From the NCBI GenBank assembly GCA_000165345.1, contig CM000433.1:672001-736000 (forward strand): 64,000 nucleotides of DNA, written 5' to 3'. Shown here piece by piece: positions 1 to 63,098 of the stretch; positions within the stretch are counted from its first letter, which is position 1, and the number at the start of each line of letters is the position of its first letter. The notes under the pieces were generated by a model. The model saw only the letters and a list, made by a program, of their open reading frames with translations. It was not told the DNA's origin and did no database searches. A program made the translations under genes and the position numbers.

Positions 1-3000
1 ATGGTCAGTTTATTTGTACTTGTATGGGAATTTTGAGGGAGATGAAACAAGATTCAAAATTTCAGTCCAAAAATTTCCAAGTACTATTCTTATCATGTAA
101 TAAGGATAAAGCTGATTATTATGTTTCTAAGTTCGAGTCAATTTTTGGTGTGAATCAAATAGTTTCTGGTTTGAAAGGAAAGACTCCAGTCCAAATTGAA
201 CAAGAATTAAAATCCAAGAGTATAATAGTTTCAGATATTGAAACATGGGATAATCATGTTGGAAAAAAACTTACAAAGATACGTGATCTTGTTAAGAAAT
301 TAAAACTTTTGGTTATTGATGGTATTGAGTTTATTAATAGCAATAATTCAAATGGCTCTGTAATAGAATCAGCTATTTCCAGAATTAGATATATTATTAC
401 TCCTTTGAATTTGAAAATAAGAATATTTGCATATTCAAAGTGTATTTCTAATGCAAATGAGGTTTCTGAATGGCTGGGAATATCAAGGGAGAATGTATTT
501 TCTTTTGATCAAAATATATTCAATGAAACTATTAATAAGAAAGTTATTGCCTTTGATTCTTATTATCGTTCAAGCCGTTTTCAAATGATGTTAAAGTATC
601 TCAAAGATAATATCATTTTGCAGTTAATTAATCAACCTAAAGAAGAAAAGAAAACTTTAATAATATTTGTTTTGGATTATGAATTCTGTTTAAGCTTGGC
701 TAATGAGCTATCTTTATTTATTGTCTCAGAAAGTGATCAACAAGAAGAAGGTGTTACTGAATATAATTCTTTATTAAAATTCTCAATACACAATGGAATA
801 GGTTTTTTGTATAAAAATCAGTCATTTAAGGAAAAAGAGTATATTTTATCACAATTTAATGATGAAAAGATAAATATTATCATAGCTTGTGAAGATATGA
901 AGAATTCTATTACTCTCAAATTTGATTATGTTGTTGTAATGGATACAAAGAAAATTGATTATGATGATAATAAGGGTTCGCTCATTAATTCAAAAATACG
1001 TAAAACTATTGATTATTCACAATTTGATATACATCAAATGCTAAGTAGATGCAGAAATCAAATGGATCATTATTCCAACTTTATTTTATTGTGTTCTTCA
1101 AATAAACAAGAGTTTTATGAATATACAATTAATAATTCTTTGCCTTTAGAATCAAATATTGATTTTGGTATCATTGATTGCTTAAATACAGAAATTGCTT
1201 TGAAGACTATTAAAACAAAACAAGATACTATAGATTGGATTACTTGGACATTATTTTATAGAAGAATTTCAAAGGTAAGTTGTTTATTTAACTATTAAAG
1301 CGTATATAAATATATATTTATATATGAAGATTCTATATGTGACTATTATTAAAAAAGATATATTATTAATGGGAAAATTAATAATTTGGATTTATTTCAT
1401 TTATTTGATGATGACAATTTGTTTTAATAAATGACAATTTTATATGATTGTAATATTTTTTATATACATATTCGTACTGTCTGAGAGTTATATTCAATTT
1501 ATTAAATTTAAAATAAATCCAATAAAAATTAATAATATACCAACTGTTGTCATATTTTGACACAAATTATTAATAGTTGCATGATCTTGGCGCCAATTTG
1601 GTAATATATATTTATATACATTTAATTAATATAAAAACTTTTTTAATTCACATTTCTTTTTTTATAGAATCCAACTTATTATGGACTAACAGGAAATACA
1701 AGCGTTCATATTTCAGATTACTTATCTGAATATTTGGAGAGCCTTTTGGATTCATTATCTGAAGCAAAATGTATACAAGTTGATGGTAAAGAAAATGATG
1801 AAGATGGTGATAATGAAAAAGAGGAAGAAAATGAAGATGATAATGAAGGAGATGATACGGTGGTATCGCTAAATTTGAGCTTAATTTCAGCATTTTATAA
1901 TTTGAAAGTTTCTACTATTGAATTTATTAGTAAGAATTTGAGCGAAGATGATACCTATGATAGTCTAATTCAGTTAATTTCGATGGTTCCTCAATTACAA
2001 GAAGAATGTCTGATAAGAAAGGGGGATAACCAGATTTTAGATCAATTATGTAGGGATCTGAACTTAAATTTAATGTCAAATACTGAAAGTTCTAAGTCAT
2101 CATCATCTTCAAATTACCAACATAGAAGCTTAACTTCAAGAAAGATCCAAATACTTTTGAATTCATATATAAAACGTCACAAATTTATATTGAGCAGACC
2201 ATTGGTTAAAAATGATTTGATAGATATATTGCGATTTGTAATGGATTTATTATTTGCAATGGTTGATATATCAAGTTCAAATGGCTGGATTAATACTTGT
2301 TTAAGAATAATGGAACTTTCACAAATGTTAGTTCAAGCAATAAGTAACCCAGTAAATGATAAATTAATGCAACTTTCAATGTTAATGAATAAAGATCGAA
2401 TTCGAATATTTAAGGAAAGTGGCGTTACTGATATTTATGATTTAATTAATATGAACGATGATGATAGAGATGAATTATTAACAGAAAAACTTTCTTTAAG
2501 TGAAAAGGAAATATCTCAAATTGCTCAAGTTTGTAATGATTTCCCAATTATAGAAACTGAATATACTATTCTTGGCTGTAATGATTTGAATGAAAAAAAT
2601 AAAAGAAGAAGATTAGATTCAGATAATTCCACTAATACAAAAAATGGAGAAACTCAAAGATTATTTGAATGTAATCCTGAATCTGAACTAACTTTATCTA
2701 TTGATATATCAAGAGATTTTAGTTCTAATGAAGAAGAAGATAATGATTTGAAAAATCAAAATGATATTAAAGATCAAGAAATTTATCCATGTATCGTTAA
2801 GAATTTGAATTATTATCCTCTTGAAAAGGAAGAGAATTGGTGGGTTATCTTAATAAAAATTGCTGTTCCAAATTCATCAAAGGAAAATAAGGATGATGAA
2901 AATGAAGATGAAATTTTGTCTATAAGAAGAATACAACTTAATAAAATAAGTAATCAAGTATTGTTAAAGTTTAACTCAATTGAAGATTCTGGTATGATTA

Positions 3001-3086
3001 CAAACTATAAGTTACTGGTTATTTGTGATAGCTACATTGGATGTGACCAAGAATTTATGTTTTCTATCAAGACAGTAGAATCTTAA
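1..3086 (+). CDS. BRR2: Brr2/SNRNP200-type spliceosomal RNA helicase, C-terminal part (second cassette with Sec63 domain), 5'-partial. Two exons, 1..1274 and 1668..3086, joined across a GTAAGT...TTTATAG intron (1275..1667).
   Basis: The frame is open from base 1, so the gene continues upstream of the window. The translation aligns along its whole length with the C-terminus of Brr2. Matching stretches include DWITWTLFYRRISK followed, after the intron, by NPTYYGLTGNTSVHISDYLSEYLESLLDSLSEAKCIQV, then MELSQMLVQA, EENWWVIL and YIGCDQEFMFSIKTVES. The last of these matches the human end YMGCDQEYKFSVDVKEA. The donor GTAAGT at 1275 and the acceptor TTTATAG ending at 1667 restore the frame exactly. Confidence 0.8.
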
Positions 3087-21578: not shown

Positions 21579-24500
21579 ATGTCCAAGAGTAAATATGAGG
21601 AGGAATGGGAGGAGAAGTTTGCAAAAAATATTGAAGGTAGCAAGATTAGTAGAGATATCAGTGATATTCTTTATGATATTGAGAAAAGTTGTTTAAAGCC
21701 TTTAATATACTTTTTAAAGTCAATCCCTTCTGGGTTTGCTCCACTTCCACTTCCCTCTCTGGAAGCTATATTGGAGCATAGTGAAAACGAATATGTTTCA
21801 TCTTCTTTTGGAGTTGAGAGAAGTATAGAAAGTGAAATTCGAAACTTAGGGACTAATTTCTGGTTCGATATGGTTATGAGTAATGGATCTGGGCCATTCA
21901 ATTCTAAGCAAATTAATTCTCCAAATGTATTTAATCATTGCTTAGTTAATAAGCTTAAACGTGTTTCTCGTAATGATGATTCAAAGGTAAATGATGAAGA
22001 AAAGGAACATGGTTGCGAAAATAGCACTTCTAATAATCATAATGATGATGATATAAATCATGGTAGTAATCAAGTTAATCAAGAAGATGAAAATTCACAA
22101 TATAAGAGTAAAAACTTTCAGATTGTGATTTCTCTTCAACAAATGTTGCATATTTATAGAATTGGAGGTATTAATAATGAAAATGTTTGGACAGCTTTAT
22201 TTGGAGCACAAATAATGGATCATCAAAGTAATAAAGTAGTTATTAAATATATTATGCCTTCATTTCTTTCAAATCAGATTCTAATGGATGCATATACAAA
22301 CATTATACAGATTTCAGAGCCTCAGAATAATTCAATGCAAATTTATATGTATTGTAGAAATATTTTAAAACATTTTTGTACTGATATTATTACTCCCAGA
22401 ATACTTATACATGCAAATATATTCTTATTATGGAATAGTACATTGAAAGATTTTTTCAATAATAAAACATATGATAAATTTCTCTCTGATATATTTAATA
22501 CAACTTCAGATAATTCACCAAAAGATTCAAATAACTCAAGTAATAATCATAGAAGCTCTTCTGATAGTGTCTTTTCTTTATATTCTGGCTTATTAGGTGG
22601 AACATTACCAAGCTTGCTTTTACTCAAAGTAATTGAGGAGGAATTTGCAAAGTTTAGTGTACTTACTCATTTTTTGATTCGAATCTTTGGTTATTTAGAC
22701 AGAAATAGCTGTCATGTATTTTCAAATTCACCAGATCTGAATATTACAGCTTTGTTGTACTTTTATAAGTGTGTATTCTTTCCATTATCATCATCATTTA
22801 CAGCAGCTTTATTAAATATAATTACAGTTGAGAGAGATTTCTTTGTACAAGCTTGTCTTAGAAGTTTATTTTCTCCAAAAATGAGTGACAAAAATGTATT
22901 TGATTGTATTAAAAGAATTGAGGATAGTGAGAAGGAGATAATAGAAATGGATGAAGTTGATGATGTTGAGGAGATTATATTAGGATCTTTTAGAGGATGT
23001 GAAAGAGGAACATCTTTGATTAAATGCAAAAAGGAGACCCATTTTTCTATTGATATGGATAATATTTATAGTAATTTAACAGTTGATAAGTTTCCTGGTG
23101 AAAGTTATAATAGGGTTTTATTTAATGTAATTAATAATATTATTTTAATAATGAGTAATAACTCAAGTAATAAGATTTTTCTAAAAAGGACAAATACTTC
23201 AGGGATTTATGATGACTATTTGGTTTCCAGATTTGGTAATACATCATCTTCATCTTCCTCTTCCTCTTCTTCAAATTCATCATGTTTTTTGGATAATAAA
23301 CTTAAAATGACTCGAGTTCCCAATTTTAAGATTGAGAAAAGAGTAACAGGGTTAAATAGAACATCAATAACAATAGATCCATATAGAGATTTAGAAGAAA
23401 ACCTTTTAGGTTTAAATAAAAGTTGTAAGATTTCTGGATTATTTTGGTTTCCACAGGAAGAAATCGATCAAACAGTATATAAGAATACGGTAGAAGAACC
23501 ATTTTTAAGAGGAACTTTGTATTACTATTATAATAGACTTGATGGTTTATTTGGATTTTTAGATTTGAAGCAAAGTTGTATGTTGGTCAACAGTATTTTA
23601 TTAAACGAAGAAAAAAGAGTTGTGAAAATCTTTCCAAAAAGATCTCATGCAGGATTTTTTAAACTTTTAGAGAGTGTATTGTTTTACTTTTTATCAAGAA
23701 AGCTGTTGGAGTCATATAAACAGAGTGTTTGTGGTATAATATTTCTAAATAAGAAAGAGATGAATGGTAACGATGTGGAATTATTAGATAGAAATGATAA
23801 GAATCTAAAATTTTGTTCTTTATTCAAGGGAAGTATTAGATCTTATATTAATAATGATAATTACTGTGCATTAAGATCAATTTACTTGTTGTTCTTAAAG
23901 GATACTTTAAGATCAAACTCTCATAATATTTTAAATAAGATATTATTAAAATCTGAGACTTGTAGTCGCCACAAGAAGTTAGAATTTCCAATAGGAAATC
24001 TTCAAATAGATATTTCAAAACTATCAAGTTCAATAGGAACAAGCACAAACAACCAAAATGGATCAAATAATAAATCAATTTCTACTGGCTCATCCAGACA
24101 GTCTTGCTTTGTATATTTAGCTTATGTAATATATGAATCAATAATAGAAGATGTCTGGAAAGTAATGAAAATTGAGAATGATGATTTATTAAAGAGCGAG
24201 AAGAATAACTCAATAAGAATGAGTGATAGATTTCTTAGTATTCAAATAATACTATCAATGTTGAAAAGATATAGAAGATTTGTCAAGATTTCTTTTGAAA
24301 ATGACAAAGTATTAAAAAAGATAATACATAGAGCATTCTATGATGGGCTTATATTACATCTCCAAAACTCAATTTCTCCAAACAATTACAATTTAGTTTT
24401 ATTCATGCTTTCCGCATGGATAGCTTCTTTTATTGACAATAGAATAATTCAAATTCACAGTATTTTTTCCCTTTTCAATGATGGAAAGCTTATAAATTGT

Positions 24501-25710
24501 ATAAATAGCTCAAATTGTGGTGGGTTTTCAATCGGTATTCAAGGAAAACCACAACTACAGAAGAAATCAACTCTAAGGGTTTTTTCAAAGTTTGTTTTTG
24601 ATTGGTTTAATAAATTCCTTGTAATTAGGTACTTGAATTACCAGGAATTGAATGAAATTGAAGAGATAATTTCAAATGGAATATTAATTATTGAGAAGAT
24701 TATTGAATCCAAAGACTTCTCAAAGATTTGTAATATTCTCATTAACAATATAATCAATAGTGTTTCTTTAATTAAACTACTTCCAAACTTTGAAGTAATA
24801 ATCTCATTATACAAAGACAGACTTTGTAAAAGATTACTAAATATAAATATGTTAGGCGCCAATCCAAACTTGACAAATGCGCGGGAAATTGCATGCATGG
24901 GGTTACAAGTTTGTTTGGAGCATTTTGTATTACTTTGTTTGGAGGAGAGTAGAGGAGTAGATGGGGACTTTAATTATTTGGGTGGAGAGGCGGGGATTAA
25001 TGACTTACTTTCAGCAATTGAGAATGATCGAAGTTGTTGGATGGAGACATTTCCAGGAAATTTGAGTGTAGAGGGTTACGAGAGTGAGAAAGCGAACAAA
25101 TCTTATTTGAATGATGATCGAATAGTTGGGGATTCAATGAATGTATCATTAAACAGCCTGAGGTCTTTGCTGGAGGATTTTTTGAGATCAATGTTTTCCA
25201 GAAGGAAAATAAATCATGAATTTCAAGTATTTTTAACAAGTAGTTTTAATTGGAGAAAAATGAATAACTATGTACTAACTCCAGTAGTTATGAGCAGATC
25301 TTCCTTTGATGATGAGATTAGTCAGAAGACAAATTCCGAGGAATTTTTGTATGGTTATTGTAATAATAATAAAAATTACAAGGATGTGAATATACCAGAA
25401 AAGATTAAGAAAGAAATTTCAAGATTTGAGTCTGAATATAAAAAAGAATTCCCCCATAGAAAGATTAATTGGCTCTGGGAGAATGGATTTGTAGTTTTGG
25501 AAGCCAAAGGTTTTAAGGCAAAAGTTTTAATTAATAAAAAAGAAGTAATTGGTGAATTAGTCAACTTTACTGTCATTTCTTCATTGTCAGTTTCTATCAT
25601 TTTGCTAAGAATGGGTGAATTTAAAGAAGGCCAGGAAATTACATTGGGAGATTTAGTTGATTATACGTGTTTGCCAATGATTGAGGTTGCGAGAGTATTG
25701 TTGAGTTTGT
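21579..25710 (+). CDS. Large hypothetical protein of at least 1377 aa. Its 3' end is lost in the partially N-masked block that begins at 25711.
   Basis: The ORF is uninterrupted from the ATG at 21579 and runs into the masked bases; the C-terminus cannot be determined. No family was assigned. Confidence 0.55.
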
Positions 25711-26481
25711 NNNNTNCNANTCNGAANTNNNTNAANNNTTNTNANCNNANTAANNNTCNNTNNAAANTANNNATNCNANTANCNNNNNANNANATTNTAT
25801 CATNNNNNNNNTTNGNNNAATNNAGANNNNNTNNTCNTNNTNTNTNANNNTATTNTNNANANTTGNGANNNNNTNANANTNTNTNANNANAANNTTNNNN
25901 TANGNNNCANNNTNNTTNNNNATNAACNTNCNTTTTTANNNNTNANNTNTTCNTCTTTATGATTNTTAANNTCNNTTNNNATANNCNNNGNTTNNNNAAN
26001 AANTCANNTTTANNNTNNTNANNNNNTTNNNNTTCTNTCNNATTNTNAATANNTATATNAATTANAACGANNTNNNTNANGNANNACNNNTNTATTNAAN
26101 NNTNAATNTTNNNNNTNATTTNNAATAAGNATAAGANNNNANTTTNNATNTNTNTNAANANNTTNTGGNNNTCCNGATTNATTGTNNTANATNNAATNNA
26201 NNNNANTNANTACANNATTNTNATTNTTNTCCAAANNTNATNNNATTANGCNTATCCAATAAAGCAGATGAACAATTNTGATTNTNTTNGNAATTATNAA
26301 TNCAAANCTANCANNTTNATATATAGANNTAANTNNNGTNNANNATNTNACGAGTCTNATAANTTNGANANCTNNANTNNNTTCAATNNTACTTAANANT
26401 NANAAANATTCNNTNNANNNTCAANNTCTNCAATTATACNTTTANNAGTNNTNTNANTNNTNTCNTGTTTAATAATTNCTC

Positions 26482-26505
<24 letters not shown>
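25711..26505. other. Partially N-masked, low-quality block. Both the midasin gene (minus strand) and the 21579 gene (plus strand) terminate inside it.
   Basis: About half the bases are n, interleaved with called bases. ORFs on both sides become runs of X in translation. Confidence 0.9.
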
Positions 26506-35163
<8,658 letters not shown>

Positions 35164-35496
35164 TGTTTAACTTTTTTTTTCTTCTTCTTCTTCCTCTAGC
35201 TATTTTGTTACTTCTCCACGTCTATATAACTTAGTTTACTTGGAATTATTTCGCATTTATCAACTATTTACAAAATTTCAATTATTTCTAGCTTTAAATA
35301 CTAAATAAGTACTTAATTCTTCAACTCCTTTCTTGAATTAAACTTCTTTCTCCTTCCTAAATTATCACTTATCAAACCTTGATTACCTTATTCTTTGTAA
35401 TTTTGTCATTAAATGACATATGAATTGCCCGCCATTTATTTATTATTATTTAAGAATTTTTTTCAAGGGCATGACAAAAATTAAGAATTACAAAAA

Positions 35497-35508
35497 TACC
35501 CGCCCAAT
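35497..35508 (+). promoter_or_regulatory. CCCGCC element (ACCCGCCCAATT) about 65-75 nt upstream of the U5 snRNA start; candidate snRNA proximal sequence element.
   Basis: It sits in the same position and has the same core as the element upstream of U4. Confidence 0.3.
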
Positions 35509-35571
35509 TATAACCATCATTAAGACGTGTTAATAAATTATTATTATTTTTTTAATTCAGGCCAAAATTAC

Positions 35572-35690
35572 ACCGTACTGATGTGATATCTCGTACCAAT
35601 CTTTCGCCTTTTACTAAAGATTGCCGTGTCACATCAGCTTGGTAGTTATTACCAGGTCATAATATTTGGGGAGTTTCTACACTCCGACAA
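35572..35690 (+). ncRNA. U5: U5 spliceosomal snRNA. The ends are approximate.
   Basis: 35596..35625 reads AATCTTTCGCCTTTTACTAAAGATTGCCGTG, matching the invariant U5 loop-1 region (human AUCUUUCGCCUUUUACUAAAGAUUUCCGUG). The closing stem CAATCTTT/AAAGATTG leaves the 11-nt loop CGCCUUUUACU. An outer stem pairs CTGATGTGA (35578..35586) with TCACATCAG (35629..35637). A Sm-like AUAAUAUUUGG follows at 35659..35669, then a 3' hairpin GGAGU-UUCUAC-ACUCC (35670..35685). The local segment is GC-rich against an AT-rich background. Confidence 0.7.
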
Positions 35691-36005
35691 CAATAAAACC
35701 AATGTATCATTTAAATTATCCCTTGAATTTAGGTTCTCTTTCTCAGCGTTCTTTCGTGTTTCTGCCGCTTGCATGCACTTGGGTACATGTGACGTTGTGC
35801 ATGCCTCCTCTCTTTGCCCACTCACTGCCAGGGATTCCTATACCGGCATTGCAAATCATCCACATGCAGCCGGGTTGTCAGGAGTGTTGACGTGTCAGGG
35901 CGCCAGCCCCCTACCTGTACATTAGCATGTATGGAGGACAAATATAACTAGGACACTAAAGGCAAGACTACTTCAAGGCTAACTACATTAAGTGATACGT
36001 TGGTT

Positions 36006-36153
36006 TTATTGTAGCCCTAGAGGGCCCCAGAAATTGCCATTAATCTATTAGAGAATAGAATAATAGAAGTTTAAATTGGTGTAGTTTTCAACTAGCAGAA
36101 ATCGCACATCCGCTGAGCGTCATTTGTAACGATATCTCCCCTTGCGTAAGGCT
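36006..36153 (-). ncRNA. U4: U4 spliceosomal snRNA. The ends are approximate.
   Basis: The minus strand reads AGCCUUACGCAAGGGGAGAUAUCGUUACAAAUGACGCUCAGCGGAUGUGCGAUUUCUGCUAGUUGAAAACUACACCAAUU...UAAUGGCAAUUUCUGGGGCCCUCUAGGGCUACAAU. Human U4 is AGCUUUGCGCAGUGGCAGUAUCGUAGCCAAUGAGG...CGCGAUUAUUGCUAAUUGAAAACUUUUCCCAAU...GGCAAUUUUUGACAGUCUCUACGGAGACUGG. The shared parts are the 5' AGC..UGCGCA, a k-turn-like AAUGA 5' stem-loop, the U6-pairing UGCUAnUUGAAAAC, a Sm site AAUUUCUGG and a terminal hairpin. The length of about 148 nt is close to human U4 at 145 nt. Confidence 0.65.
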
Positions 36154-36216
36154 AATTCTCACCTAAATGAATTTTCTCAAACTTAATTTTTAATACTACT
36201 AAATGATGGGTCTCAA

Positions 36217-36228
36217 ATGGCGGGCAAA
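36217..36228. promoter_or_regulatory. GGCGGG/CCCGCC element (ATGGCGGGCAAA). It lies about 65-75 nt upstream of the U4 snRNA start on the minus strand and about 110 nt upstream of the USB1 ATG. It is a candidate snRNA proximal sequence element, or an E2F-like site.
   Basis: Read on the U4 strand the motif is TTTGCCCGCCATTTG. A nearly identical TTGCCCGCCATTT occurs at 35422..35434, and ACCCGCCCAATT occurs at 35497..35508, about 65-75 nt upstream of U5. Confidence 0.35.
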
Positions 36229-36336
36229 GTTACAAATGAGTCAAAATATAACAATCTAAAAAAAATAAAGTCAACAATAGCCAATTTAATATTATATTTG
36301 GTTTTATATTGAATTAAATATTGTTTTTTCCACCAA

Positions 36337-37521
36337 ATGTACAAAGATGAAGAAAAAGAAAGTAAAAATAGTTATCATGGAAATGGTGAAAGCTTGAATT
36401 CTGATTCCTATATTTTAAAAAGTGACGAAATTGAAACAATAAGATCTTTAATAAAAGGAAAAAGAAAAGAATTAATTTTAGAAGAAAATGATAAAAACAA
36501 TAATCAAATAAGACCTTCAAAGATGAAAAGAAAGGAAACTCATAAAAATGATCTTAAAAATGGTTCTATTGAGGAAATAACAAAACCAAAAATACGAGAT
36601 TACTTTACATGTATGTTATTTATTACATTGAAATTTCAAGATATCTTTACAAAGAAAAATTCGGAAATTATAATTGGAGAGTTAAATTTTAATGAACTAT
36701 TTATCAAATTTTCATTAAATATCTTAACTGAGGTATATAAAAAATACTATTACAAAGCAGAAATTTCTTCTGAAAAACCTAAAATATATCCAACTTTTGA
36801 TTTTCAAGAAATTAAAAAAAATCCAAATGGACAAAAGATATATAACAATATTTGCTCTAATTCTAACTTTGATCTTATTGTTAATGATACAAATTATCAA
36901 GTAAATCAAAGAGTTGGATTACATTTAAGCTTAACAAGAAATCATCATATTAGTAAGAAATTATCAATCAAATTTTTGGAAAATATTATCAAAAAATTCA
37001 ATAATTGCCTGGATATTAATAATGAAATTCCAGAAAAAGCCTTTATATCACAAAGAATTGAAATTCAAACTAAATTAAAATCCTTTTGTATTCTTTTAGA
37101 CTATGATTCTGTTATTATTTTGAAAAATACATACCTATATTCCAAAAATACTAATATTAATGGTGGTATCTTTGTAGCAATTCAAATTCATCATTCAAGC
37201 AAAATTAATTACTTGAATCCTATTATTGAAATTATTGATCAAGCTTGTATTGATTTAGGTATACAACCACTTTATTCTGAAAGAGTTTTCCATATTTCAT
37301 TATTTTATATTAAAAAGTCTGATCTATATTTGGGAAATGCTGGCCATAATTCCAAAAGTGTAATTGAAACTTACAACTTTAAAGAATATCTTTCATCTAA
37401 ACTCATTTCTTCTTCTATTAATGATTTCTCAACCCTAACCACAAAAAATAATATCGTTTGGATTAATAAACTTGTATTCAGAGTTGGAATATATGAGTAC
37501 TATTTACTTCTTGATTCTTGA
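36337..37521 (+). CDS. USB1: Usb1/Mpn1-like U6 snRNA phosphodiesterase (2H phosphoesterase, LigT-like), 394 aa.
   Basis: Two H-x-S-x motifs sit at the spacing expected for a 2H fold: GLHLSLTRNHHISK and RVFHISLFYIKK (family motifs HLSL and HVSL). The N-terminus is K/E-rich. Identification is by motif only. Confidence 0.5.
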   Translation: MYKDEEKESKNSYHGNGESLNSDSYILKSDEIETIRSLIKGKRKELILEENDKNNNQIRPSKMKRKETHKNDLKNGSIEEITKPKIRDYFTCMLFITLKFQDIFTKKNSEIIIGELNFNELFIKFSLNILTEVYKKYYYKAEISSEKPKIYPTFDFQEIKKNPNGQKIYNNICSNSNFDLIVNDTNYQVNQRVGLHLSLTRNHHISKKLSIKFLENIIKKFNNCLDINNEIPEKAFISQRIEIQTKLKSFCILLDYDSVIILKNTYLYSKNTNINGGIFVAIQIHHSSKINYLNPIIEIIDQACIDLGIQPLYSERVFHISLFYIKKSDLYLGNAGHNSKSVIETYNFKEYLSSKLISSSINDFSTLTTKNNIVWINKLVFRVGIYEYYLLLDS

Positions 37522-51891: not shown

Positions 51892-53105
51892 TTCTTCTGT
51901 ATTTTAGTATTTTCTTGCTTTTAATTGTTTTTATACCCAAATCTTAAGTTCCCTATTTCATTTTACTTTGGTATTTAATTATATTCTTAGAGGCTCAGAG
52001 CCATTTCCTTAAAAGTATATTTGACTTTTTGGTCAAAAGATTGAAATACTCAATTTCCACTGTTTTAATCCTTTAAATAAATATTTTTATTTTAAATTGC
52101 ATGTATTCAATTTCTATTTTTAATTTATTGATTTCTCCGCTTTTTTCTCCCCTCTCATCCCCACCCCCTACATGCTTTTTTTTACGTTTGCCAAAAAAAG
52201 CTTTTTCACTAGATAAAATATAACTTTCACTATTTTTCTCCTTAATTAAATTTCACTCACTATTTTGTTTTATACTTCTAAATCCCAACTTATTACAAAA
52301 TATGAAAATAAGAATTAGATTTTTTAAAAAAACAAAAAAATGAATTTCCCCACACATATGGAAATAATTATTAAAAAATCGCAACCAATTATTCTAAATA
52401 AATTGGCAGCTGCTATGCATGCACACATTTCTAATTCAATATATACAAGCGCATGCAAATTCAGACTTACATATTAGGTAATTACAATTGACATTTCTAT
52501 AAGAAAAGATTGTATTATGAGGAAAAAAAGACTTACAATACTATGATTTCACTGCTTTATCTGACAATTTAAAAAAAATTCGAAACACAATCTATATTAT
52601 CACACATTATAATTCACCTTGTAACAATAATTAATACATTCTTTCCTATTCCCTTTTTAATTTCCCTTTCATAAATAATCTTACGTGTCCGCATGCGATA
52701 TTAAAGAGGCGGGTACGGTTTATGACATTGCATGCATCCACAAACATGCAAAATAATTAGAGAAAAAAAATTGGTGGGTTGAGTAAAAAAAAAGGGAAAA
52801 TTTTGATAATAACAAAAACAAGTAAATATTTTCTACAATCCCAAAGAGTTATCTATCGTTTTTTTTCGCACAGAATATGTAATATTAAATGAAATGTCAA
52901 TCTATTAAGATTTTGGAGTTGAATTTCAGGATTAGTATTCTCTCCACAAATCTTGAAGTAGGAGTTTTCCCATAATACAATTTGAGAATACCTGATTTCC
53001 TTTCAAGATATTAATGGAATCTTCGATATGAATACGCCTTATGGTATATAAGTAAACTGGCATCAGATTTTCTCGTTAATGAAATCTCTATTTGAATTCT
53101 ATATA

Positions 53106-56100
53106 TCAACAGAATAGACCAATTGAATCAACAAAACTGTCAATATTTTGGCTAAATAATTTATCTCCAACAGTCTCGCAAGGAAAATCTTGAACAAGAT
53201 TTGAAGGAGCTAGTATATAAGCTGAAAATGGAGACATATTGAGAAAAACTGTTTGCTTGAGAGATTTTGTATTGACAAATCTATATGGAGATTCGTGTTG
53301 GAAATTGTTTGGAAATTTATTATTAACAATAGAATTAATATTTGAAGGCTCTGAGTTAGGGCTAAAAATCTTGAATCCTTGCTCAGATTTGATAGAAGTG
53401 GAACAAAAGCTGCCCGTGATATGATATTTTTTGTCTCCTCCAAATCTCTCATCTTGTGTGTCAATTATTAGACTCTGGGGAAGTTCACTTGAAATCCCAA
53501 ATCCATAATCGTTGTAATACTTTTCGCTGAAATTGAAAACAAAAACACAATTATTTCTCTCAATTACCATAACTTTATCCAATTCGTGGCACAATACTAC
53601 ATTAATATTAGATGATGAATTATACAAACTATCAGTTGTTAAGATCTTTAATGAATCTTTTGAATGCTTACCAAGGCTTTTTGCTCTAGAATAGATGTTT
53701 TGAATAGACTTTGAGCCTTCTTTTCCATTGCTTTGGGGGGTTGAGTCCAAATAAATGACAGATTCATTATCTACTGGGCTTGTATTATCCCCTGAGCTCT
53801 CTTCCAATTTTTTAATAATTGCTTCTTTCTTCGCTAAAACCCTCTTAGAAAATGTTGAAGCTGGGGAAATCTCTGAAGGTATTAATGAAGTAGAGGTTCC
53901 TTTAGTTAAAGGTGAAATTGATTTGGAGTAACAAGCTGAAGTAAGCCCATTCTTACCTAACTCTCCCTCACTACCACATGTTAACGGTGAAAGATAATTA
54001 TAATTGACTCCATAATCCTGAATGTTATTCTTGGCTATCCAGCTTAAAAATTTCTCAAGACGAATCAATAGAGTATTAAAGAATTCTAAATGCTTGAATT
54101 TCAAGTTCTTGTTATCTGCCAAATCCCATTTACAACACATTTTGCTATTATCCATGTTATTATTTGGTCTAGGAAGATCAAAAGAATCAGGATTTCCAAA
54201 TTCGGAGCCCATACTTTGAAAGACACCATTTTTTGCGAAAGCCATGGTTGTTAATATAAGTAGCTTTAACTGTTTAAGAGCAAAAACCGACTTGTCAAAA
54301 CCGTCAAATACCATCATATGATGATGAAGAGCATTTTCTCCAAAGGCTTGAAGAATGATGGGTGAATTTGGCTTAAGTATTAAGCTTGGAGTAACATCCA
54401 AAACATTGCACTGTTCAAAATACAAGAAACTAGTTGCTCGTGCAATTGAGTCCCATGAAAATGAATAAGCTGCTTTTACTCTACCTCTGGACCCCATCCA
54501 TCTAGAATGATCAAAGTTTTTCAATATCTCACAGCAACCCCAAGCAATGCTATCCTTACATGGCTCAACCAAGTACCCATCTACGTTCGGAGTTAAGAAA
54601 TCCCTTGGGCCGCCACTAGTAGTAGCAACAACAGGCTTTCCAGCTGTCCATCCTTCCAATACAACAATTCCAAATGGTTCATTTCTTGATGGTACTACTA
54701 CTGCGTCACAAGCCTTGTAAAGTCTGATTACATCATCTCCTGATTTCTTTCCAACAAATCTGATGGAATTGTAAATACCTAACTGATGAGATCTACGCAC
54801 AATCTCATCTTTTTGGTGTCCATCTCCAACTATGATAAATTTCGTATCATTACGATATTTCAAAATGCCAGGTACTGCTTCAATAAGTAAGTCAACTCCT
54901 TTTTGGAGAGCCATTCTTGCAACGCAAAGAAATGTTGGTTCCAAAGGTCCTATGCCGTATTGCCTTTTAACTTCGCCAGCATCATCCATTGCTACACTAT
55001 CAAAGGTCTTGCAATTAATTCCATTAAAAATTACTTTAATTTTGTTTCTATTTATTCCAAATAGTCTACATACTTCCTCTGCAAACACTCCACTTACACA
55101 AATTAGTCGGTCTGCAGTATGGGAGCCTTCTCTCTCTATATCAGAAATTCTACCGCTCTGTCCTCCATATGACTGATTTCCACATCTGCCGTATTCAGTA
55201 GAATGCAATGTTAGGATAGTAGTCCTATTATTATTTCCAATTCTTCTTAAACTTGTTAATACAGGAGCAGCTAACCAATCATGGCAATGACAAATATTGA
55301 ATCGATACCCATTCTTTACATTATTAAGCATTGGATGATCAGGTACCTTTGTTAGCCCATCTTCCCATCTCTGCATATAATATACAAACGAATTACACAT
55401 ATTTATAATTTCAGTAACAAAATCAGAATTCAACTGGAAAGGGCATTCATGGTATAATACTCCATCGTGAACTTTGATTATATATGCTGATGTAGTTGCC
55501 CTTGTGAATAGATGAACCTCGTGGCCAAGTCTTACAAGGCTTGCAGACAACTGTGAAACATGAGGTGAAACCCCACCAACTGAGTGAGTATAAAGACTTT
55601 CCCAACTGAACATTGCAATTCTGAGAGGATTCTGTGTCACCGTCTTCATCTCCAGAGATTCTATCCCATATAAGTTTCTGGAAACAAACTCAACTGTATG
55701 CAAATCAGATTCTCCCATATCCGAGTAACTATTATTATTGCCATTATCATTATCTCCTCTACTGGATATGTTTTGCTTCTCTCTGTTTTTGTATAAAATC
55801 CGAATCTTCTTATTGGAATTCCTCATTTTATCCTCATGGGGAAGCAACTCGTCAATTATATCTTTTTTAATATTTAAACTGGATGGGCTTTTAAGGATGA
55901 TGTCTTGCAAGGAGCTACAAATTGAAGTATTCCAAATATAGTCAAAGCCCATACCTCCATATTCCAAAGGTACTGCAAGCTCTGAACAAGCCTTGTCTTT
56001 GTTTTCTCTTAAGAGAAGCTCATTTGCTATTGTAATAGCAAATGGCTTAATTGTGTGGATTGTATCATTAATCAAAGCCAACACTGAGGAGATATAGGAG

Positions 56101-59100
56101 TATTTTTCTTGTTCTTCTGATAGATCTGGAACAGTGAATCTGAAGCCATCAATACCAAGATGAGTCAATAAATAGTGGAGAGAAGAGAATATTTGAGCTA
56201 ACATTGGAATGTAACCCAGATTGAGGCGACTGTAACTTTTATTGTAAGCAAATAGAGGTGAAATTACATCTGGAGTATGTTTGAAAAAGCTTGGATTGAA
56301 TGTATTCAAATTAGTAAGCATAAATGACTCATACAGATCAACAACAGAGTCATCCAAAAATAACTCATCAATTCTAACTATATTAGTACCAGAATTACCA
56401 TTTCCAAATATAAATGATCCCTCTCTGCTCATATTTCCGTTGCTTGCTTCGCTTCCTGAGCACATATTTATCTCATCAATGTCTATAATGTCTTGTAGAT
56501 TGCTCAAATTGTTGTTAACCTCCCTATCACATGGCTGAAGCATTGAGTTAGAATTAGTAATATCTGCAAATGTTAAGTTAAAGTCGACTATCACGGCAAT
56601 TCCTCTTGAATGGCAGTCATCCATTAAGTCCTTAAACTCTTCCAAGGTACCGTATTTGCTATAAGGAGTGAAATAATTGAATGGATACTGACTGTTGCTA
56701 AATGACTGATAATGCTCTAGTAAACCAGTCAACAGTAAACAATTATATCCTCCTCGAGATATCCTTGGTAGAACCTTTTCTTTAAAGCTTGCAAAAGTTC
56801 CAAATTCTCCCTTGGAAGAAAATGCAATATTTGCTTCATATATATACAAAGGTGATTGCCTAAAATTTGTCACAAGTCCTTTGACAATACTTGTAACTGG
56901 TATCTGATATTCCTTTCCATTTGAATCAAAGATATTATCTTTATTTTGCTTTAAATTTCCACCTAACCTTGGCTTTAAAACACATCTTGGAAGAGGGTAC
57001 TTGAGATCTCTATTTCTCAGGCCATCGTGCTCTTTTTGGCTTTCCAAGTAAAAATTACAATTCATTAAAGCATTCTCAGTACTATCTTTGATTCCTGAAG
57101 TAGTCAAAGATCTTGAATAAGAAAGTAATCTGTAAGTCTCCAGTTCTTGAGAAGAAACTGCTCCCATACTATTGTTGACTTCTGCCATATGACCTTCTGT
57201 GAATCCATCAGCCTTAGAAGTAACAATCCTAATTTTGAATGAAATAGAATTAGCTTTGGGACTACAACTTAAAAAACTTTCTAGCTTATTTTCATCCAAA
57301 ATTATTGAATACACCCTACTCTTCATAAAATGTGGAATTGAAGGGTAATTTTCATATATCTCTTGGTTCATTGAACAAATATTTTCTGTTTCAAGTTGCA
57401 TTGGGTGAGAAGTCTTATTCCAATCATTAAAATCGCCAACTAAGTAAATATTCATGGTTCTTAAGCCTCCCTTAATACTTCTTCTTCTTCTATTAAGTCC
57501 ATAGCAAAATACCTGGTCTGTAAGTTCATCCCCTATAAACTCCCTAATTAACCAAGCCCTATTGCCATTTCCCAATTCTGACTTCCTTTTCAGCTCTACT
57601 ACGCCCATACTCTTGTAAACTTCACAAAATTTTGTGAACCCTTCCCTACACCAAATCCTCTCATTCTCCATAGTTTTCTCATCCTTATCGGTATTTGTTT
57701 GTGCATGCGCATGTAATAAAGCAAAGCATTGCATGCAATTCCTATCAGAACATGTGGCGCCGCCCCACACTGACTTTGCCAACTTGGCCTTGAGCGTGTG
57801 CGTGTCGAACATCATTTCTCTGCACTCATAAAACTCTTCTTCCTTGACAGATTCCTGAATGACAGGTATTTCTTGGTTGTCTGTCAACTTTTCATTCTGG
57901 TTATTGTTACTATTAATTGTTGAGTTCGAGTACAATAAATTTTTCTTTCTAATATTCGATATTGCAACAGAGTCAGAAGCGCCAACTACCGCAGACTCCC
58001 AAAATCTTAAATTTGACCATTCTGAAACCAAAAGAGGATCTTCTTCAAATCCAATCACTTCTTCATCCTCAAATATCTCGATATCATCGATCACTTCCAA
58101 TTCTTTATTCTCATCTAGTCCCTCAAGAGTTGAACCTTTCTTTGATAGAGTTAAGTTCTCCGTGCTTGAATTAATAGAGGTTGTTACTGAGTCCAGGTCC
58201 GTGGATGAAAACCCATTTGCTGAGTCAACCAATTTGCAAGAGTCTGTTGAATAGTAATTCAATGTTGTAGCTATCGTTGATTTGCCATCCAAGTTTTCCC
58301 CTCCCATCATATTTTCTTTAATCTCTAGGTCTCTCTCAGAGTCTTCTGTTCTGAAAATGTTTAAATCCTCAAAATTCTCTAGTGAATTATAAATCAACTT
58401 CTGTGTCATAAACTCTGTTCTAGCTTCTCCAAGAGCCAAATCTTTTAAGGTTGAAATGTAACTGCTCCAATTATATGTACTCGTTACCATTGCATAATCT
58501 GTTGGATTCGTAAATATGTGAATCATATAAGCATCTTTCTTAGAGTTTGATAATGATAATTTCTTCAATTCATCCTCAAATCTTGCTTGTCCATCCAATC
58601 TATTCTCAATGCTAAAACTAAAAACAGTTAGGAATGATTCTTCCATCTTATTCAACCGAAAATCTTCATATAAAGTCTCAACATTATTTATAAGCTCTGA
58701 AATATTGCTAACTTCACTAAATTTCACCATAAAAGCTAAAGAAGACAAATCAAAACTTCGAATCTTCTCATTACTTTCTTTCAAAAATGTATTGCAAAAT
58801 GCCAATCCCAGGTTATTTCGTGAATTCTCTATATCTCTTCTCCTCTTTAAGGTTGTCATCATCCACTTTTCATTGCTAATTTCGCTCTTATTTCCTCCAT
58901 TCATATTCAAAATCGAGTTTGAGTGAGAAAAGTAATTCTGTAAAATCTCTCTCTCATTCTTGTCCACAATTACTTCAAACATCTTATTTCTAAAAACACC
59001 ATCACTATAATTAAAAAATTCAAGCATACATAGATTTCTTGGATCCTTATTATCTTCCAAAACCATCCAATAACTCCCTTTTACCATTCTTGAAAATTCA

Positions 59101-59315
59101 TTCAGTTGAAATATCAGTCCTAGCTTTTCTTTATCGTTTTCACATCTTATTAGAGTCATACTTAGTGGATAAGAGTCCAGAATGCAACATTCCCCTTCTC
59201 TATTACTACTTATCTCCTCATTTTCGTGGCATGTTAGAATATCTAGAGCCTCCTCTAGTTCCAGTCGCATTCTGTTTACATTTTTATCCAACTCAAGCTC
59301 CTCCCTATCACTCAT
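53106..59315 (-). CDS. Large alpha-glucan (starch/amylopectin) synthase fusion of 2069 aa. Domain order is an N-terminal region of about 600 aa of unknown function, a CBM48-like module, a GH13 alpha-amylase-family domain, a GT5 glycogen/starch-synthase catalytic domain, and an S/N-rich C-terminal tail.
   Basis: The CBM48 signature is MNIYLVGDFNDWNKTSHPM. GH13 is marked by YNCLLLTGLLEHY...FTPYSKYGTLEEFKDLMDDCHSRGIAVIVDFNLTF and GIDGFRFTVPDLS (region II, GFRxD-like). GT5 is marked by LRIAMFSWESLYTHSVGGVSPHVSQLSASLVRLGHEVHLFTR, ILTLHSTEYGRCGN, ICVSGVFAEE and C-terminally GKPVVATTSGGPRDFLTPNVDGYLVEP (GT-B fold). Confidence 0.8.
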   Translation of the reverse strand: MSDREELELDKNVNRMRLELEEALDILTCHENEEISSNREGECCILDSYPLSMTLIRCENDKEKLGLIFQLNEFSRMVKGSYWMVLEDNKDPRNLCMLEFFNYSDGVFRNKMFEVIVDKNEREILQNYFSHSNSILNMNGGNKSEISNEKWMMTTLKRRRDIENSRNNLGLAFCNTFLKESNEKIRSFDLSSLAFMVKFSEVSNISELINNVETLYEDFRLNKMEESFLTVFSFSIENRLDGQARFEDELKKLSLSNSKKDAYMIHIFTNPTDYAMVTSTYNWSSYISTLKDLALGEARTEFMTQKLIYNSLENFEDLNIFRTEDSERDLEIKENMMGGENLDGKSTIATTLNYYSTDSCKLVDSANGFSSTDLDSVTTSINSSTENLTLSKKGSTLEGLDENKELEVIDDIEIFEDEEVIGFEEDPLLVSEWSNLRFWESAVVGASDSVAISNIRKKNLLYSNSTINSNNNQNEKLTDNQEIPVIQESVKEEEFYECREMMFDTHTLKAKLAKSVWGGATCSDRNCMQCFALLHAHAQTNTDKDEKTMENERIWCREGFTKFCEVYKSMGVVELKRKSELGNGNRAWLIREFIGDELTDQVFCYGLNRRRRSIKGGLRTMNIYLVGDFNDWNKTSHPMQLETENICSMNQEIYENYPSIPHFMKSRVYSIILDENKLESFLSCSPKANSISFKIRIVTSKADGFTEGHMAEVNNSMGAVSSQELETYRLLSYSRSLTTSGIKDSTENALMNCNFYLESQKEHDGLRNRDLKYPLPRCVLKPRLGGNLKQNKDNIFDSNGKEYQIPVTSIVKGLVTNFRQSPLYIYEANIAFSSKGEFGTFASFKEKVLPRISRGGYNCLLLTGLLEHYQSFSNSQYPFNYFTPYSKYGTLEEFKDLMDDCHSRGIAVIVDFNLTFADITNSNSMLQPCDREVNNNLSNLQDIIDIDEINMCSGSEASNGNMSREGSFIFGNGNSGTNIVRIDELFLDDSVVDLYESFMLTNLNTFNPSFFKHTPDVISPLFAYNKSYSRLNLGYIPMLAQIFSSLHYLLTHLGIDGFRFTVPDLSEEQEKYSYISSVLALINDTIHTIKPFAITIANELLLRENKDKACSELAVPLEYGGMGFDYIWNTSICSSLQDIILKSPSSLNIKKDIIDELLPHEDKMRNSNKKIRILYKNREKQNISSRGDNDNGNNNSYSDMGESDLHTVEFVSRNLYGIESLEMKTVTQNPLRIAMFSWESLYTHSVGGVSPHVSQLSASLVRLGHEVHLFTRATTSAYIIKVHDGVLYHECPFQLNSDFVTEIINMCNSFVYYMQRWEDGLTKVPDHPMLNNVKNGYRFNICHCHDWLAAPVLTSLRRIGNNNRTTILTLHSTEYGRCGNQSYGGQSGRISDIEREGSHTADRLICVSGVFAEEVCRLFGINRNKIKVIFNGINCKTFDSVAMDDAGEVKRQYGIGPLEPTFLCVARMALQKGVDLLIEAVPGILKYRNDTKFIIVGDGHQKDEIVRRSHQLGIYNSIRFVGKKSGDDVIRLYKACDAVVVPSRNEPFGIVVLEGWTAGKPVVATTSGGPRDFLTPNVDGYLVEPCKDSIAWGCCEILKNFDHSRWMGSRGRVKAAYSFSWDSIARATSFLYFEQCNVLDVTPSLILKPNSPIILQAFGENALHHHMMVFDGFDKSVFALKQLKLLILTTMAFAKNGVFQSMGSEFGNPDSFDLPRPNNNMDNSKMCCKWDLADNKNLKFKHLEFFNTLLIRLEKFLSWIAKNNIQDYGVNYNYLSPLTCGSEGELGKNGLTSACYSKSISPLTKGTSTSLIPSEISPASTFSKRVLAKKEAIIKKLEESSGDNTSPVDNESVIYLDSTPQSNGKEGSKSIQNIYSRAKSLGKHSKDSLKILTTDSLYNSSSNINVVLCHELDKVMVIERNNCVFVFNFSEKYYNDYGFGISSELPQSLIIDTQDERFGGDKKYHITGSFCSTSIKSEQGFKIFSPNSEPSNINSIVNNKFPNNFQHESPYRFVNTKSLKQTVFLNMSPFSAYILAPSNLVQDFPCETVGDKLFSQNIDSFVDSIGLFC

Positions 59316-62147: not shown

Positions 62148-62442
62148 NNNNTTNTNANTTNNATNAATNNGCNNNNCTNANNNNNNANANNNNNNNAGNN
62201 NNNANNNNNNNNNNNNNNNANNTNNNNNNNNNNNNTNNCTNNNNTNTTNNNNNNNNNCNNNNNNNNCNNNNNTNNNTNNCNNTNNCTNNNNANNNNNNNT
62301 NNTTTNNNNNTTTTTNNNNNNNNNNNNNNNNTNNTNNTTNNTNNNTTTNNNNNNNNTNTTTNANNNNCANNNNNNNNTTNNCNNNNNNTNCNNNNNNNNN
62401 NNNANNNNTNNNNNTTTTNNCNNNCNNNNNANNNNNNNNNTN
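62148..62442. other. Partially N-masked block of about 300 nt. The surviving bases are mostly T. It is preceded by a strongly pyrimidine-rich, G-poor tract (61900..62147).
   Basis: Seen directly. The flanking sequence carries CCCCC blocks and CT-rich strand asymmetry. Confidence 0.9.
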
Positions 62443-63026: not shown

Positions 63027-63098
63027 TCCGAGTTAGTATAGTGGTTAGTATATCCGCCTGTCACGCGGATGACCCGGGTTCAATTCCCGGACTTGGAG
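63027..63098 (+). tRNA. tRNA-Asp: tRNA-Asp (anticodon GUC).
   Basis: TCCGAGTTAGTATAGTGGTTAGTATATCCGCCTGTCACGCGGATGACCCGGGTTCAATTCCCGGACTTGGAG. The acceptor stem pairs TCCGAGT with ACTTGGA (one G-U pair). The D-arm is AGTATAGTGGTTAGTAT, the anticodon loop is CTGTCAC (GTC), and the T-arm is CCGGGTTCAATTCCCGG. It is almost identical to canonical eukaryotic tRNA-Asp. A T-run follows directly. Confidence 0.85.

Follow-up and report, generated by a model that had tools for sequence, protein, structure and literature searches.

A 64,000-nucleotide stretch of the Cryptosporidium parvum genome (assembly GCA_000165345.1, contig CM000433.1, positions 672,001 to 736,000; hereafter the window, whose own numbering is used below) carries the genes of two spliceosomal small nuclear RNAs (snRNAs), U5 on the plus strand and U4 on the minus strand. 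The two genes lie tail to tail in the intergenic region between the divergent genes for midasin and Usb1, at about 947 kb on the chromosome record CP044418.1 (1.086 Mb). When both strands were scanned at the Rfam gathering thresholds, the 64 kb gave three matches only: U4, U5 and one tRNA. Three further features of the locus had escaped an earlier reading of this DNA from its letters alone: a promoter shared by the two genes, a 3' box shared by the two genes, and, between the boxes, a gap that evolves several-fold faster than neutral sites.

Both snRNA genes match their Rfam models over the full length (Table 1). The invariant U5 loop-1 sequence CUUUCGCCUUUUACUAAAGAUU occupies 35600-35621, and the covariance alignment renders loop 1 (expected GCCUUUUACU) as UCUUUCGCCUUUUACUAAAGAUU, together with the Sm site AAUAUUUGG and the terminal stem GGAGU/ACUCC; for U4 it contains the 5' kink-turn (k-turn) stem-loop (AAUGA), UGCUAGUUGAAAACU and the Sm site AAUUUCUGG. 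The earlier sequence-only reading had thus recognized U5 (with loop 1, an Sm-like site and a 3' hairpin) and its convergent arrangement with U4 between midasin and Usb1 correctly, and the neighbors that it named, midasin, Usb1 and Brr2, are confirmed by domain matches; its U4 was right in identity and features and wrong at the 3' end, which it placed at 36006, 8 nt beyond the Rfam boundary at 36014. A search that it proposed for U5, U4, U2, U1 and U6 recovered the first two, and no other Rfam family matched either strand of 35300-36400 at E<=10, the gap included. Both genes are single-copy genes already known: a 2022 survey that joined small-RNA sequencing to Rfam searches (PMC9465071) gives U1, U2, U4, U5, U6, RNase P and signal recognition particle (SRP) RNA as expressed, with one copy each in the C. 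parvum genome, and reports that sequencing recovered all 55 Rfam benchmark genes, among them one U4 and one U5. As RNAs they are ordinary: they resemble other Sm-class U4 (RF00015) and U5 (RF00020) RNAs in their full-length matches with loop 1, k-turn, Sm sites and 3' hairpins. A separate observation concerns position 36133 (U4 nucleotide 21), where five C. parvum Logan assemblies (L007-L010 and L012) have T>C on the plus strand, that is, A21>G in U4, which makes the first base pair of the 5' stem-loop G-U instead of A-U; it is their sole difference from the window across the 584-nt U5-to-U4 block, and their spacer is identical.

Table 1. Features of the U5/U4 locus and of neighboring genes (positions are those of the window)
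Feature	Position	Strand	Details
U5 promoter	35499-35546	+	CCCGCC (-71), N9, CCATCAT (-56), then AAGACGTG and an A/T-rich TATA-like box (~-39 to -24)
U5 snRNA gene	35570-35686	+	RF00020 full length, model 1-117, 69.5 bits (gathering threshold 40)
U5 3' box (arm 1 of inverted repeat)	35690-35714	+	core AAAACCAATGTATC at 35695-35708
GC-rich spacer core	35715-35987		without a structured RNA gene; conserved boxes on either side
Spacer-core motifs			GCATGC 35771, 35799; ATACCGGC 35840-35847; TCCACATGCA 35859-35868; TGACGTGTCA 35888-35897; GGCGCC 35899-35904
U4 3' box (arm 2 of inverted repeat)	35988-36012	-	core AAAACCAACGTATC at 36007-35994
U4 snRNA gene	36014-36153	-	RF00015 full length, model 1-138, 95.9 bits (gathering threshold 46)
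U4 promoter	36183-36224	-	CCCGCC (-71), N9, CCATCAT (-56), then TATTAAAAATTAA (~-42 to -30)
Distal upstream elements, U5/midasin side	35404-35437	+	palindrome TGTCATTAAATGACA (35404-35418); TTGCCCGCCATTT (35425-35437), E2F-like GGCGGG core
Midasin	26482-35163	-	four AAA_5 and Midasin AAA lid domains
Usb1, 394 aa	36337-37521	+	HVSL domain, 29 bits; 100% identical to a C. parvum Iowa II protein; C. meleagridis orthologue bears the name Usb1
Brr2, C-terminal part	24-3086	+	SNRNP200_wHTH, DEAD and Sec63 domains; at the left window edge

Orthologous loci were fetched via the Usb1 and midasin orthologues of eight further lineages: C. hominis, C. meleagridis, chipmunk genotype I, C. ubiquitum, C. canis, C. 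ryanae and the Logan assemblies L005 (SRR31860986) and L006 (SRR18693150), the C. ryanae and C. hominis loci being added by Usb1 profile or midasin searches. With C. parvum this makes nine lineages and 18 snRNA genes. Usb1 of L005 and L006 is 47% and 57% identical to the C. parvum protein, and three of the nine genomes are GC-rich: L005 (locus GC 0.51), C. canis and C. ryanae. In every one of the nine, U5 and U4 converge between midasin and Usb1, and their 3' ends are 244-400 nt apart. Orthologues in the eight other lineages score 62.5-69.5 bits for U5 and 84.3-95.9 bits for U4, sequence identity of the two RNAs across the genus is 90-98%, and the structure conservation index (SCI) is 0.98-1.02 for U5 and 0.93-1.00 for U4. 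The divergent neighborhood of U4 and Usb1 is likewise kept in all nine lineages, which could mean co-regulation or could merely reflect the high synteny of the whole genus; Usb1 acts on U6, the pairing partner of U4, by trimming its 3' end.

Upstream of both genes lies the same bipartite element (Table 1). The pattern CCCGCC-N6-12-CCATCAT matches twice in the window (0.00 expected), once at U5 and once at U4; the start of CCATCAT falls at -56 or -55 in each of the 18 genes, and that of CCCGCC, in most of them, at -71 or -70. The 18 aligned promoters give the extended consensus CCCGCC..T..A.A.CCATCATT.AG..GT, then an A-rich box that remains A/T-rich even in the three GC-rich genomes. To judge from its conservation and placement, CCCGCC-N9-CCATCAT would act as an snRNA promoter of the proximal sequence element (PSE) type, with a lineage-specific sequence. 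The comparison is with the familiar layout of metazoan snRNA genes, whose PSE is recognized by SNAPc, and of plant snRNA genes, with their upstream sequence element (USE) and TATA box: in all of them an element about 55-70 bp upstream stands at a fixed distance and is common to different snRNA genes, and the A/T-rich box that follows recalls the plant genes. The Cryptosporidium element differs in being unrelated to either the metazoan or the plant consensus and in having as its distal half an E2F-like core, GGCGGG (the reverse complement of CCCGCC), which is common upstream of C. parvum genes (PMC3734150).

Some of these elements may have more than one user. The single CCCGCC/GGCGGG element on the U4 side may serve both U4 and Usb1, as it is placed midway in the 184-bp divergent region between them (36154-36336). 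On the other side, TTGCCCGCCATTT at 35425-35437 repeats the U4-side element at 36215-36227 in inverted form, perfectly over 13 nt, GCCCGCCA occurs twice in the 64 kb (0.03 expected), and a second CCCGCC is found at -96 to -158 in seven of the nine species, with U5 or midasin as its possible user. Both promoter and 3' box were defined from the U4 and U5 loci only. Scanning metagenome contigs with the promoter pattern gave four chance matches, none with an snRNA nearby, and the searchable literature held nothing relevant on apicomplexan snRNA promoters, 3' boxes or Integrator.

Downstream, each gene is followed by a 25-nt sequence that starts 2-3 nt past the snRNA 3' end and that, read in the sense of its own gene, is ACAATAAAACCAAYGTATCAYTTAA with the core AAAACCAAYGTATC. 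As the genes converge, the two copies read as a 25-nt inverted repeat, with arms 92% complementary in C. parvum. The core is kept after both U5 and U4 in all nine species, the GC-rich genomes included, 8-15 nt beyond the Rfam 3' ends, and exact copies of the box occur nowhere else in the window. Changes in the arms amount to 4 compensatory cells and 50 that break pairing; arms are closer to the genus consensus (identity 0.95) than to their partner in the same genome (0.90); and in C. canis and C. ryanae complementarity is down to 14-17 of 28, with the core still conserved in each arm. The arms are therefore conserved as sequence and not as a pair, that is, as two copies of a linear 3'-end signal. 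An AATAAA hexamer is often present within the arm and is not strictly conserved; T-runs of five or more, of the kind that end RNA polymerase III (Pol III) transcripts, are absent downstream of U5 and U4.

We consider the AAAACCAAYGTATC box a probable functional analogue of the 3' box of metazoan and plant snRNA genes, unrelated to it in sequence. The metazoan 3' box has the consensus GTTTN0-3AAARNNAGA and is cleaved by Integrator; the plant one is CAN4-9AGTNNAA. Like them, the Cryptosporidium box is short and linear, lies between a few and about 15 nt beyond the mature 3' end, is common to different snRNA genes and is conserved independently of pairing. It differs in fitting neither consensus by inspection and in often having AATAAA just upstream.

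The sequence-only reading had also proposed that 35700-36000 might hold U2-like fragments, a third snRNA or part of a common precursor, or else a shared regulatory block. The first group of proposals is not supported: by the computational tests applied here, the gap at 35715-35987 is neither a third snRNA nor a structured RNA gene. In addition to the Rfam result above, the gap of the eight orthologous loci gives no Rfam match at E<=1. Minimum free energy (MFE) between the boxes shows no folding excess over dinucleotide shuffles (z from -1.06 to +2.16 across nine species and both strands); the whole gap with the arms included does score, at z = -3.6 and -3.3, because the 25-nt inverted repeat alone supplies that signal. 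For the six closest species, RNAalifold finds -9 kcal/mol across roughly 300 columns, the covariation term (+0.67) being unfavorable, and SCI is 0.10-0.12 (about 0 for all nine species) against 0.93-1.02 for U4 and U5 in the same species. Pairwise identity of the gap is 32-45%, with many indels. No conserved snoRNA C box, Sm site or Pol III B box was found in the gap of the nine species, and no PSE-type promoter lies within it.

Particular candidates fared no better. The short U2-like strings are present as letters, by chance, and U2 is a single Rfam-detected copy elsewhere in the C. parvum genome according to the survey (PMC9465071). For an RNase P or MRP RNA on the minus strand, with helix P4 from AUCCCU/AGGGAU, the strings that resemble conserved regions (CR) I and V, AGGAAUCCCUGG and ACCUAAAUUCAAGGGAU, are not conserved even in C. 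meleagridis; regular expressions for CR-I (GNAANNUCNGNG) and CR-V (ACNNNANNNNGNNUA) gave no match and one stray match over nine species and both strands, and the MRP candidate described for C. parvum in the literature lies at chr4:381884-382317. RNase P and SRP RNA are, in the same survey (PMC9465071), single Rfam-detectable genes, and neither is in this window. A telomerase RNA was considered for the minus-strand octamer AACCUAAA, an 8-mer of (CCTAAA)n (we take the Cryptosporidium telomere repeat to be TTTAGG); it occurs in C. parvum and C. hominis and is absent in the other seven species. C/D and H/ACA snoRNAs, an Sm-class RNA and a Pol III gene with a B box were rejected with the boxes that they would have, none of which was found in the gap, and a small conserved hairpin presenting TCCACAUG was rejected when RNAalifold gave 0 pairs in the best-conserved block.

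What the gap does have is an unusual composition. GC content is 0.42 in U5, 0.41 in U4 and 0.45 in the spacer (0.47-0.49 in its core), compared with 0.24-0.27 in the flanks. The best 200-nt stretch reaches 0.54, and no other of the 15 intergenic gaps exceeds 0.35 over 200 nt; an island had been claimed at about 600 nt and about 50% GC, which is real and unique, if milder than stated. Spacer-core GC is 0.45-0.52 in the six AT-rich genomes (locus 0.26-0.31) and 0.51-0.59 in the three GC-rich ones. Beyond each box the RNA-sense strand is rich in pyrimidines (mostly 0.55-0.82), symmetrically for both genes, and the outward strands are purine- and GAGA-rich.

The gap is also enriched in short motifs. 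Counts pooled over the nine spacers were compared with dinucleotide shuffles, and none of 500 shuffles reached the observed count for GCATGC (15, 0.93 expected), BGCATGCAH (18, 0.28 expected), CCACATG (8, 0.45 expected), TACCGG (6, 0.74 expected) or GACGTGTC (5, 0.09 expected). The short motifs outlast the turnover of the sequence around them, and their order and strand vary among lineages. TGCAT/TGCATGCA corresponds to AP2_1, one of the motifs that are over-represented upstream of C. parvum genes (PMC3734150), and four ApiAP2 domains of C. parvum bind TGCAT in vitro (PMC4117751); the TGCAT-binding ApiAP2s are cgd2_3490, cgd1_3520, cgd8_3230 and cgd5_4250. Within the window GCATGC is mostly intergenic; one pair, at 57703/57731, lies inside the coding sequence of a 2069-aa protein (53109-59315, minus strand) with a C-terminal glycosyltransferase domain (GT4/GT5, starch-synthase-like). 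Upstream of a gene for a 4780-aa protein, 51892-53105 contains four GCATGC in two pairs 34 and 39 nt apart (52417/52451 and 52691/52730), a layout like that of the spacer pair at 35771/35799 but in AT-rich surroundings. The spacer resembles promoter clusters of ApiAP2 TGCATGCA sites (AP2_1 / TRP-2) in having multiple TGCATGCA/ACATGC sites, often about 30 nt apart, as at 52417-52730; it differs from them in lying downstream of both adjacent genes, in a GC island and in rapidly evolving sequence.

The speed of this evolution can be measured between C. parvum and C. hominis. Their spacer cores differ at 43 of 273 positions (15.8%) without gaps. The corresponding figures are 3.0% for four-fold degenerate sites (338 compared), 4.0-4.3% for the upstream flanks of 300 nt, 2.2% for the remaining 4859 aligned positions of the locus (Fisher p = 3e-20) and 0-1% for the snRNAs. 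The divergence is about 5 times that of four-fold sites, and the excess, 4-7-fold over four-fold sites and neighboring DNA, is confined to the gap, the upstream flanks being at background rate. At greater distances the spacer differs at about 29% against 15.4% at four-fold sites (C. meleagridis) and at about 36% against 25.3% (chipmunk genotype I). Polarized by the C. meleagridis outgroup, changes number 17 and 18 on the two lineages, an equality that makes a single introgression unlikely. Inversion of the spacer between its arms, considered as another source of the divergence, was rejected: same-orientation scores win wherever there is signal. The excess is asymmetric, with one parvum/hominis difference in the roughly 55 nt beside the U4 box (35932-35987) and 28 in the U5-proximal 120 nt; the part next to U4 may be under constraint, perhaps as a trailer of pre-U4.

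Most of the changes (35 of 43) are transitions, and C>T plus G>A make up 18 of the 35 polarized changes. The AT>GC rate is raised 6.9 times and the GC>AT rate 5.2 times. GC-biased gene conversion is not indicated as the cause of the island, as there is no AT>GC excess: changes from weak to strong pairs number 12 and the reverse 20, and both classes are up 5-7 times.

From these features (the genes, the promoter geometry, the boxes, the GC enrichment and motif retention of a gap that has no conserved RNA structure, and its excess rate) we hypothesize that U5 and U4 are two independent transcription units with the same promoter and 3' box, and that the spacer is their shared zone of read-through and termination, subject to transcription-associated mutagenesis; we give this reading a probability of roughly 55%. 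Each unit would be driven by the PSE-like bipartite element at -71 to -50 and the A-rich box, and the 3' box would direct 3' cleavage and termination. Polymerase from both genes would read through into the approximately 285 bp between the boxes and terminate there, and the heavy read-through would account for the excess substitution. More speculatively, the GC-rich composition, bound ApiAP2 factors or both might slow or block polymerase in both directions and so prevent antisense transcription.

Three considerations favor this reading. The excess rate is found only downstream of both genes, with upstream flanks at background; active convergent genes about 330 bp apart need efficient termination against mutual antisense; and the combination of frozen genes, variable flank and transitions matches mutagenesis at tRNA loci, where transcription-associated mutagenesis reaches 7-10 times the average at highly transcribed small-RNA (tRNA) genes (PMC6130373). 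The likeness to tRNA genes and their flanks (PMC6130373) consists in ultra-conserved gene bodies beside several-fold faster flanks and in transitions that include C>T and G>A. The U5/U4 locus differs in that its hypervariable zone is common to two convergent snRNA genes, presumably transcribed by RNA polymerase II (Pol II), and is GC-rich, not AT-eroded, and in that the upstream flanks are not accelerated. Other points weigh against a read-through zone as the whole account. The equilibrium GC computed from the substitutions is, on small counts, 0.39, below the present 0.52, so the GC island would need selection or another process to maintain it. The motif enrichment (for GCATGC, 15 against 0.9) is expected of a regulatory module and not of a pure termination buffer, unless the factors are roadblocks. 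Constraint may act on four-fold sites and on compact intergenic DNA too, so that the factor by which the gap is faster than neutral may be overestimated.

A stronger form of the hypothesis goes further. The GC-rich block may be a selected, dedicated bidirectional Pol II terminator, in which a GC "speed bump" and palindromic ApiAP2 (TGCATGCA) roadblocks lie between lineage-specific 3' boxes; mutagenesis would scramble the sequence and selection would restore its composition and motifs. An equilibrium GC below the present value hints, on small counts, that selection holds the composition up. We regard this version as less probable than not and offer it tentatively.

The main rival, on a similarly tentative footing, treats the gap as a cis-regulatory module: a cluster of ApiAP2 (TGCATGCA/ACATGC), E2F-like (GGCGCC) and GAGA-like sites that would serve as an enhancer for the four surrounding genes or as a central bidirectional promoter, whose transcripts would pass outward, antisense to U5 and U4, and on into midasin and Usb1. 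It is here that the shared regulatory block of the sequence-only reading survives, because known ApiAP2 motifs of C. parvum (TGCATGCA-type) are over-represented in the gap. Midasin takes part in ribosome biogenesis, and in Toxoplasma TGCATGC drives a ribosome regulon (PMC11358496). Enrichment of GCATGC, BGCATGCAH and CCACATG above all 500 shuffles, the shuffling of motif order and strand between species (as in binding-site turnover), the over-representation of these motif families upstream of C. parvum genes (PMC3734150) and the binding of TGCAT by four AP2 domains (PMC4117751) all favor such a module, as do the mostly intergenic placement of GCATGC, the similar site pairs upstream of the 4780-aa gene and the purine/GAGA-rich outward strands. 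Several features of the locus argue the other way. The other motif-bearing intergenic regions of the window are AT-rich (local GC 0.20-0.31) and none is a GC island, which led us to reject an ordinary promoter as the identity of the gap; evolution 4-7 times faster than four-fold sites and neighboring intergenic DNA is unexpected of regulatory DNA; midasin and Usb1 each already have E2F-like sites nearer their own start codons than the gap is; and outward transcription would meet two very active snRNA genes head-on. The module and the termination zone are compatible and do not exclude each other.

We think it unlikely that the gap encodes an independent, unstructured and fast-evolving noncoding RNA (ncRNA), whether a lineage-specific RNA of intermediate size or a stable 3' trailer of pre-U4 or pre-U5. 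Its retention at 244-400 nt in a very compact genome and the good conservation, within the parvum clade, of the U4-proximal 55 nt or so are what such an RNA would predict, and the survey (PMC9465071) describes many intergenic intermediate-size ncRNAs in C. parvum and six transcripts antisense to benchmark genes. Against it stand the absence from the gap of a PSE-type promoter, an internal Pol III box, an Sm site or a snoRNA box, the lack of any structure signal, and a sequence with 32-45% identity, many indels and substitution above four-fold sites.

Still less probable is a structural role for the inverted repeat: as a long stem formed in read-through RNA and cut, in the manner of yeast pre-snRNAs, by an enzyme of the RNase III type; as a DNA cruciform; or as terminal inverted repeats, like those of a miniature inverted-repeat transposable element (MITE), carrying the GC block. 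The 92% complementarity of the arms and the z scores of -3.3 and -3.6 with the arms included would suit a stem. The arms, on the other hand, follow the genus consensus more closely than each other, with 4 compensatory against 50 breaking cells and, in C. canis and C. ryanae, loss of complementarity around a conserved core box; there is no inversion between species, and a MITE is opposed by the lack of a target-site duplication (direct repeat) at the arms and of a second copy in the window, the arms being orthologous in all nine species. A known structured RNA (U2-like, RNase P/MRP or telomerase) is most improbable of all: its U2-like, CR-I/CR-V-like and telomere-template-like strings are set against Rfam silence at E<=10, absent CR patterns and strings not conserved even in C. 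meleagridis.

Elsewhere in the window, single Ns and short runs of N pepper two stretches, 25711-26505 and 62148-62442, the first of which cuts the midasin reading frame. The midasin open reading frame (ORF) is 2893 aa here and 2889 aa in the IOWA-ATCC annotation, compared with 6122-6507 aa in C. meleagridis, chipmunk genotype I, C. ubiquitum and C. canis, and the next large ORF past the N-peppered stretch encodes a cullin-family protein on the opposite strand (21579-26396, plus). The short ORF and the cullin-family neighbor together indicate that the C-terminal half of midasin is absent or placed elsewhere in the assembly. The C-terminal region of Brr2 is divided between two ORFs, 24-1298 (SNRNP200_wHTH/DEAD) and 1983-3086 (Sec63), about 680 nt apart, which could be due to an intron, a frameshift or an assembly problem. 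The tRNA found by Rfam (63.9 bits) is a tRNA-Asp (GTC), typed by ARAGORN, at 63027-63098 on the plus strand, just beyond the second N-peppered stretch.

The tail-to-tail arrangement of U5 and U4 around a spacer of about 330 bp, conserved across Cryptosporidium, is lineage specific. Relative to the searchable literature, a putative Cryptosporidium snRNA promoter (CCCGCC-N9-CCATCAT with an A-rich box) and 3'-end signal (AAAACCAAYGTATC) are modestly new, and such signals are needed for the expression of small RNAs, guide RNAs for example, in a parasite that is hard to engineer. Near-invariant U5 and U4 genes around a hypervariable spacer of 244-400 bp have the layout of a genus-wide marker for typing by polymerase chain reaction (PCR): the spacer separates all nine lineages and is identical among the C. 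parvum isolates examined. A stretch of about 285 bp that evolves some 5 times faster than four-fold sites, beside frozen genes and signals, fits the mutagenesis described for tRNA loci and would extend that pattern to the snRNA genes of a protist. If the spacer is indeed a dedicated terminator, the locus would provide the first defined architecture of promoter, 3'-end signal and terminator for apicomplexan snRNA genes, and a natural case in which function is kept by composition and motif content under hypermutation.

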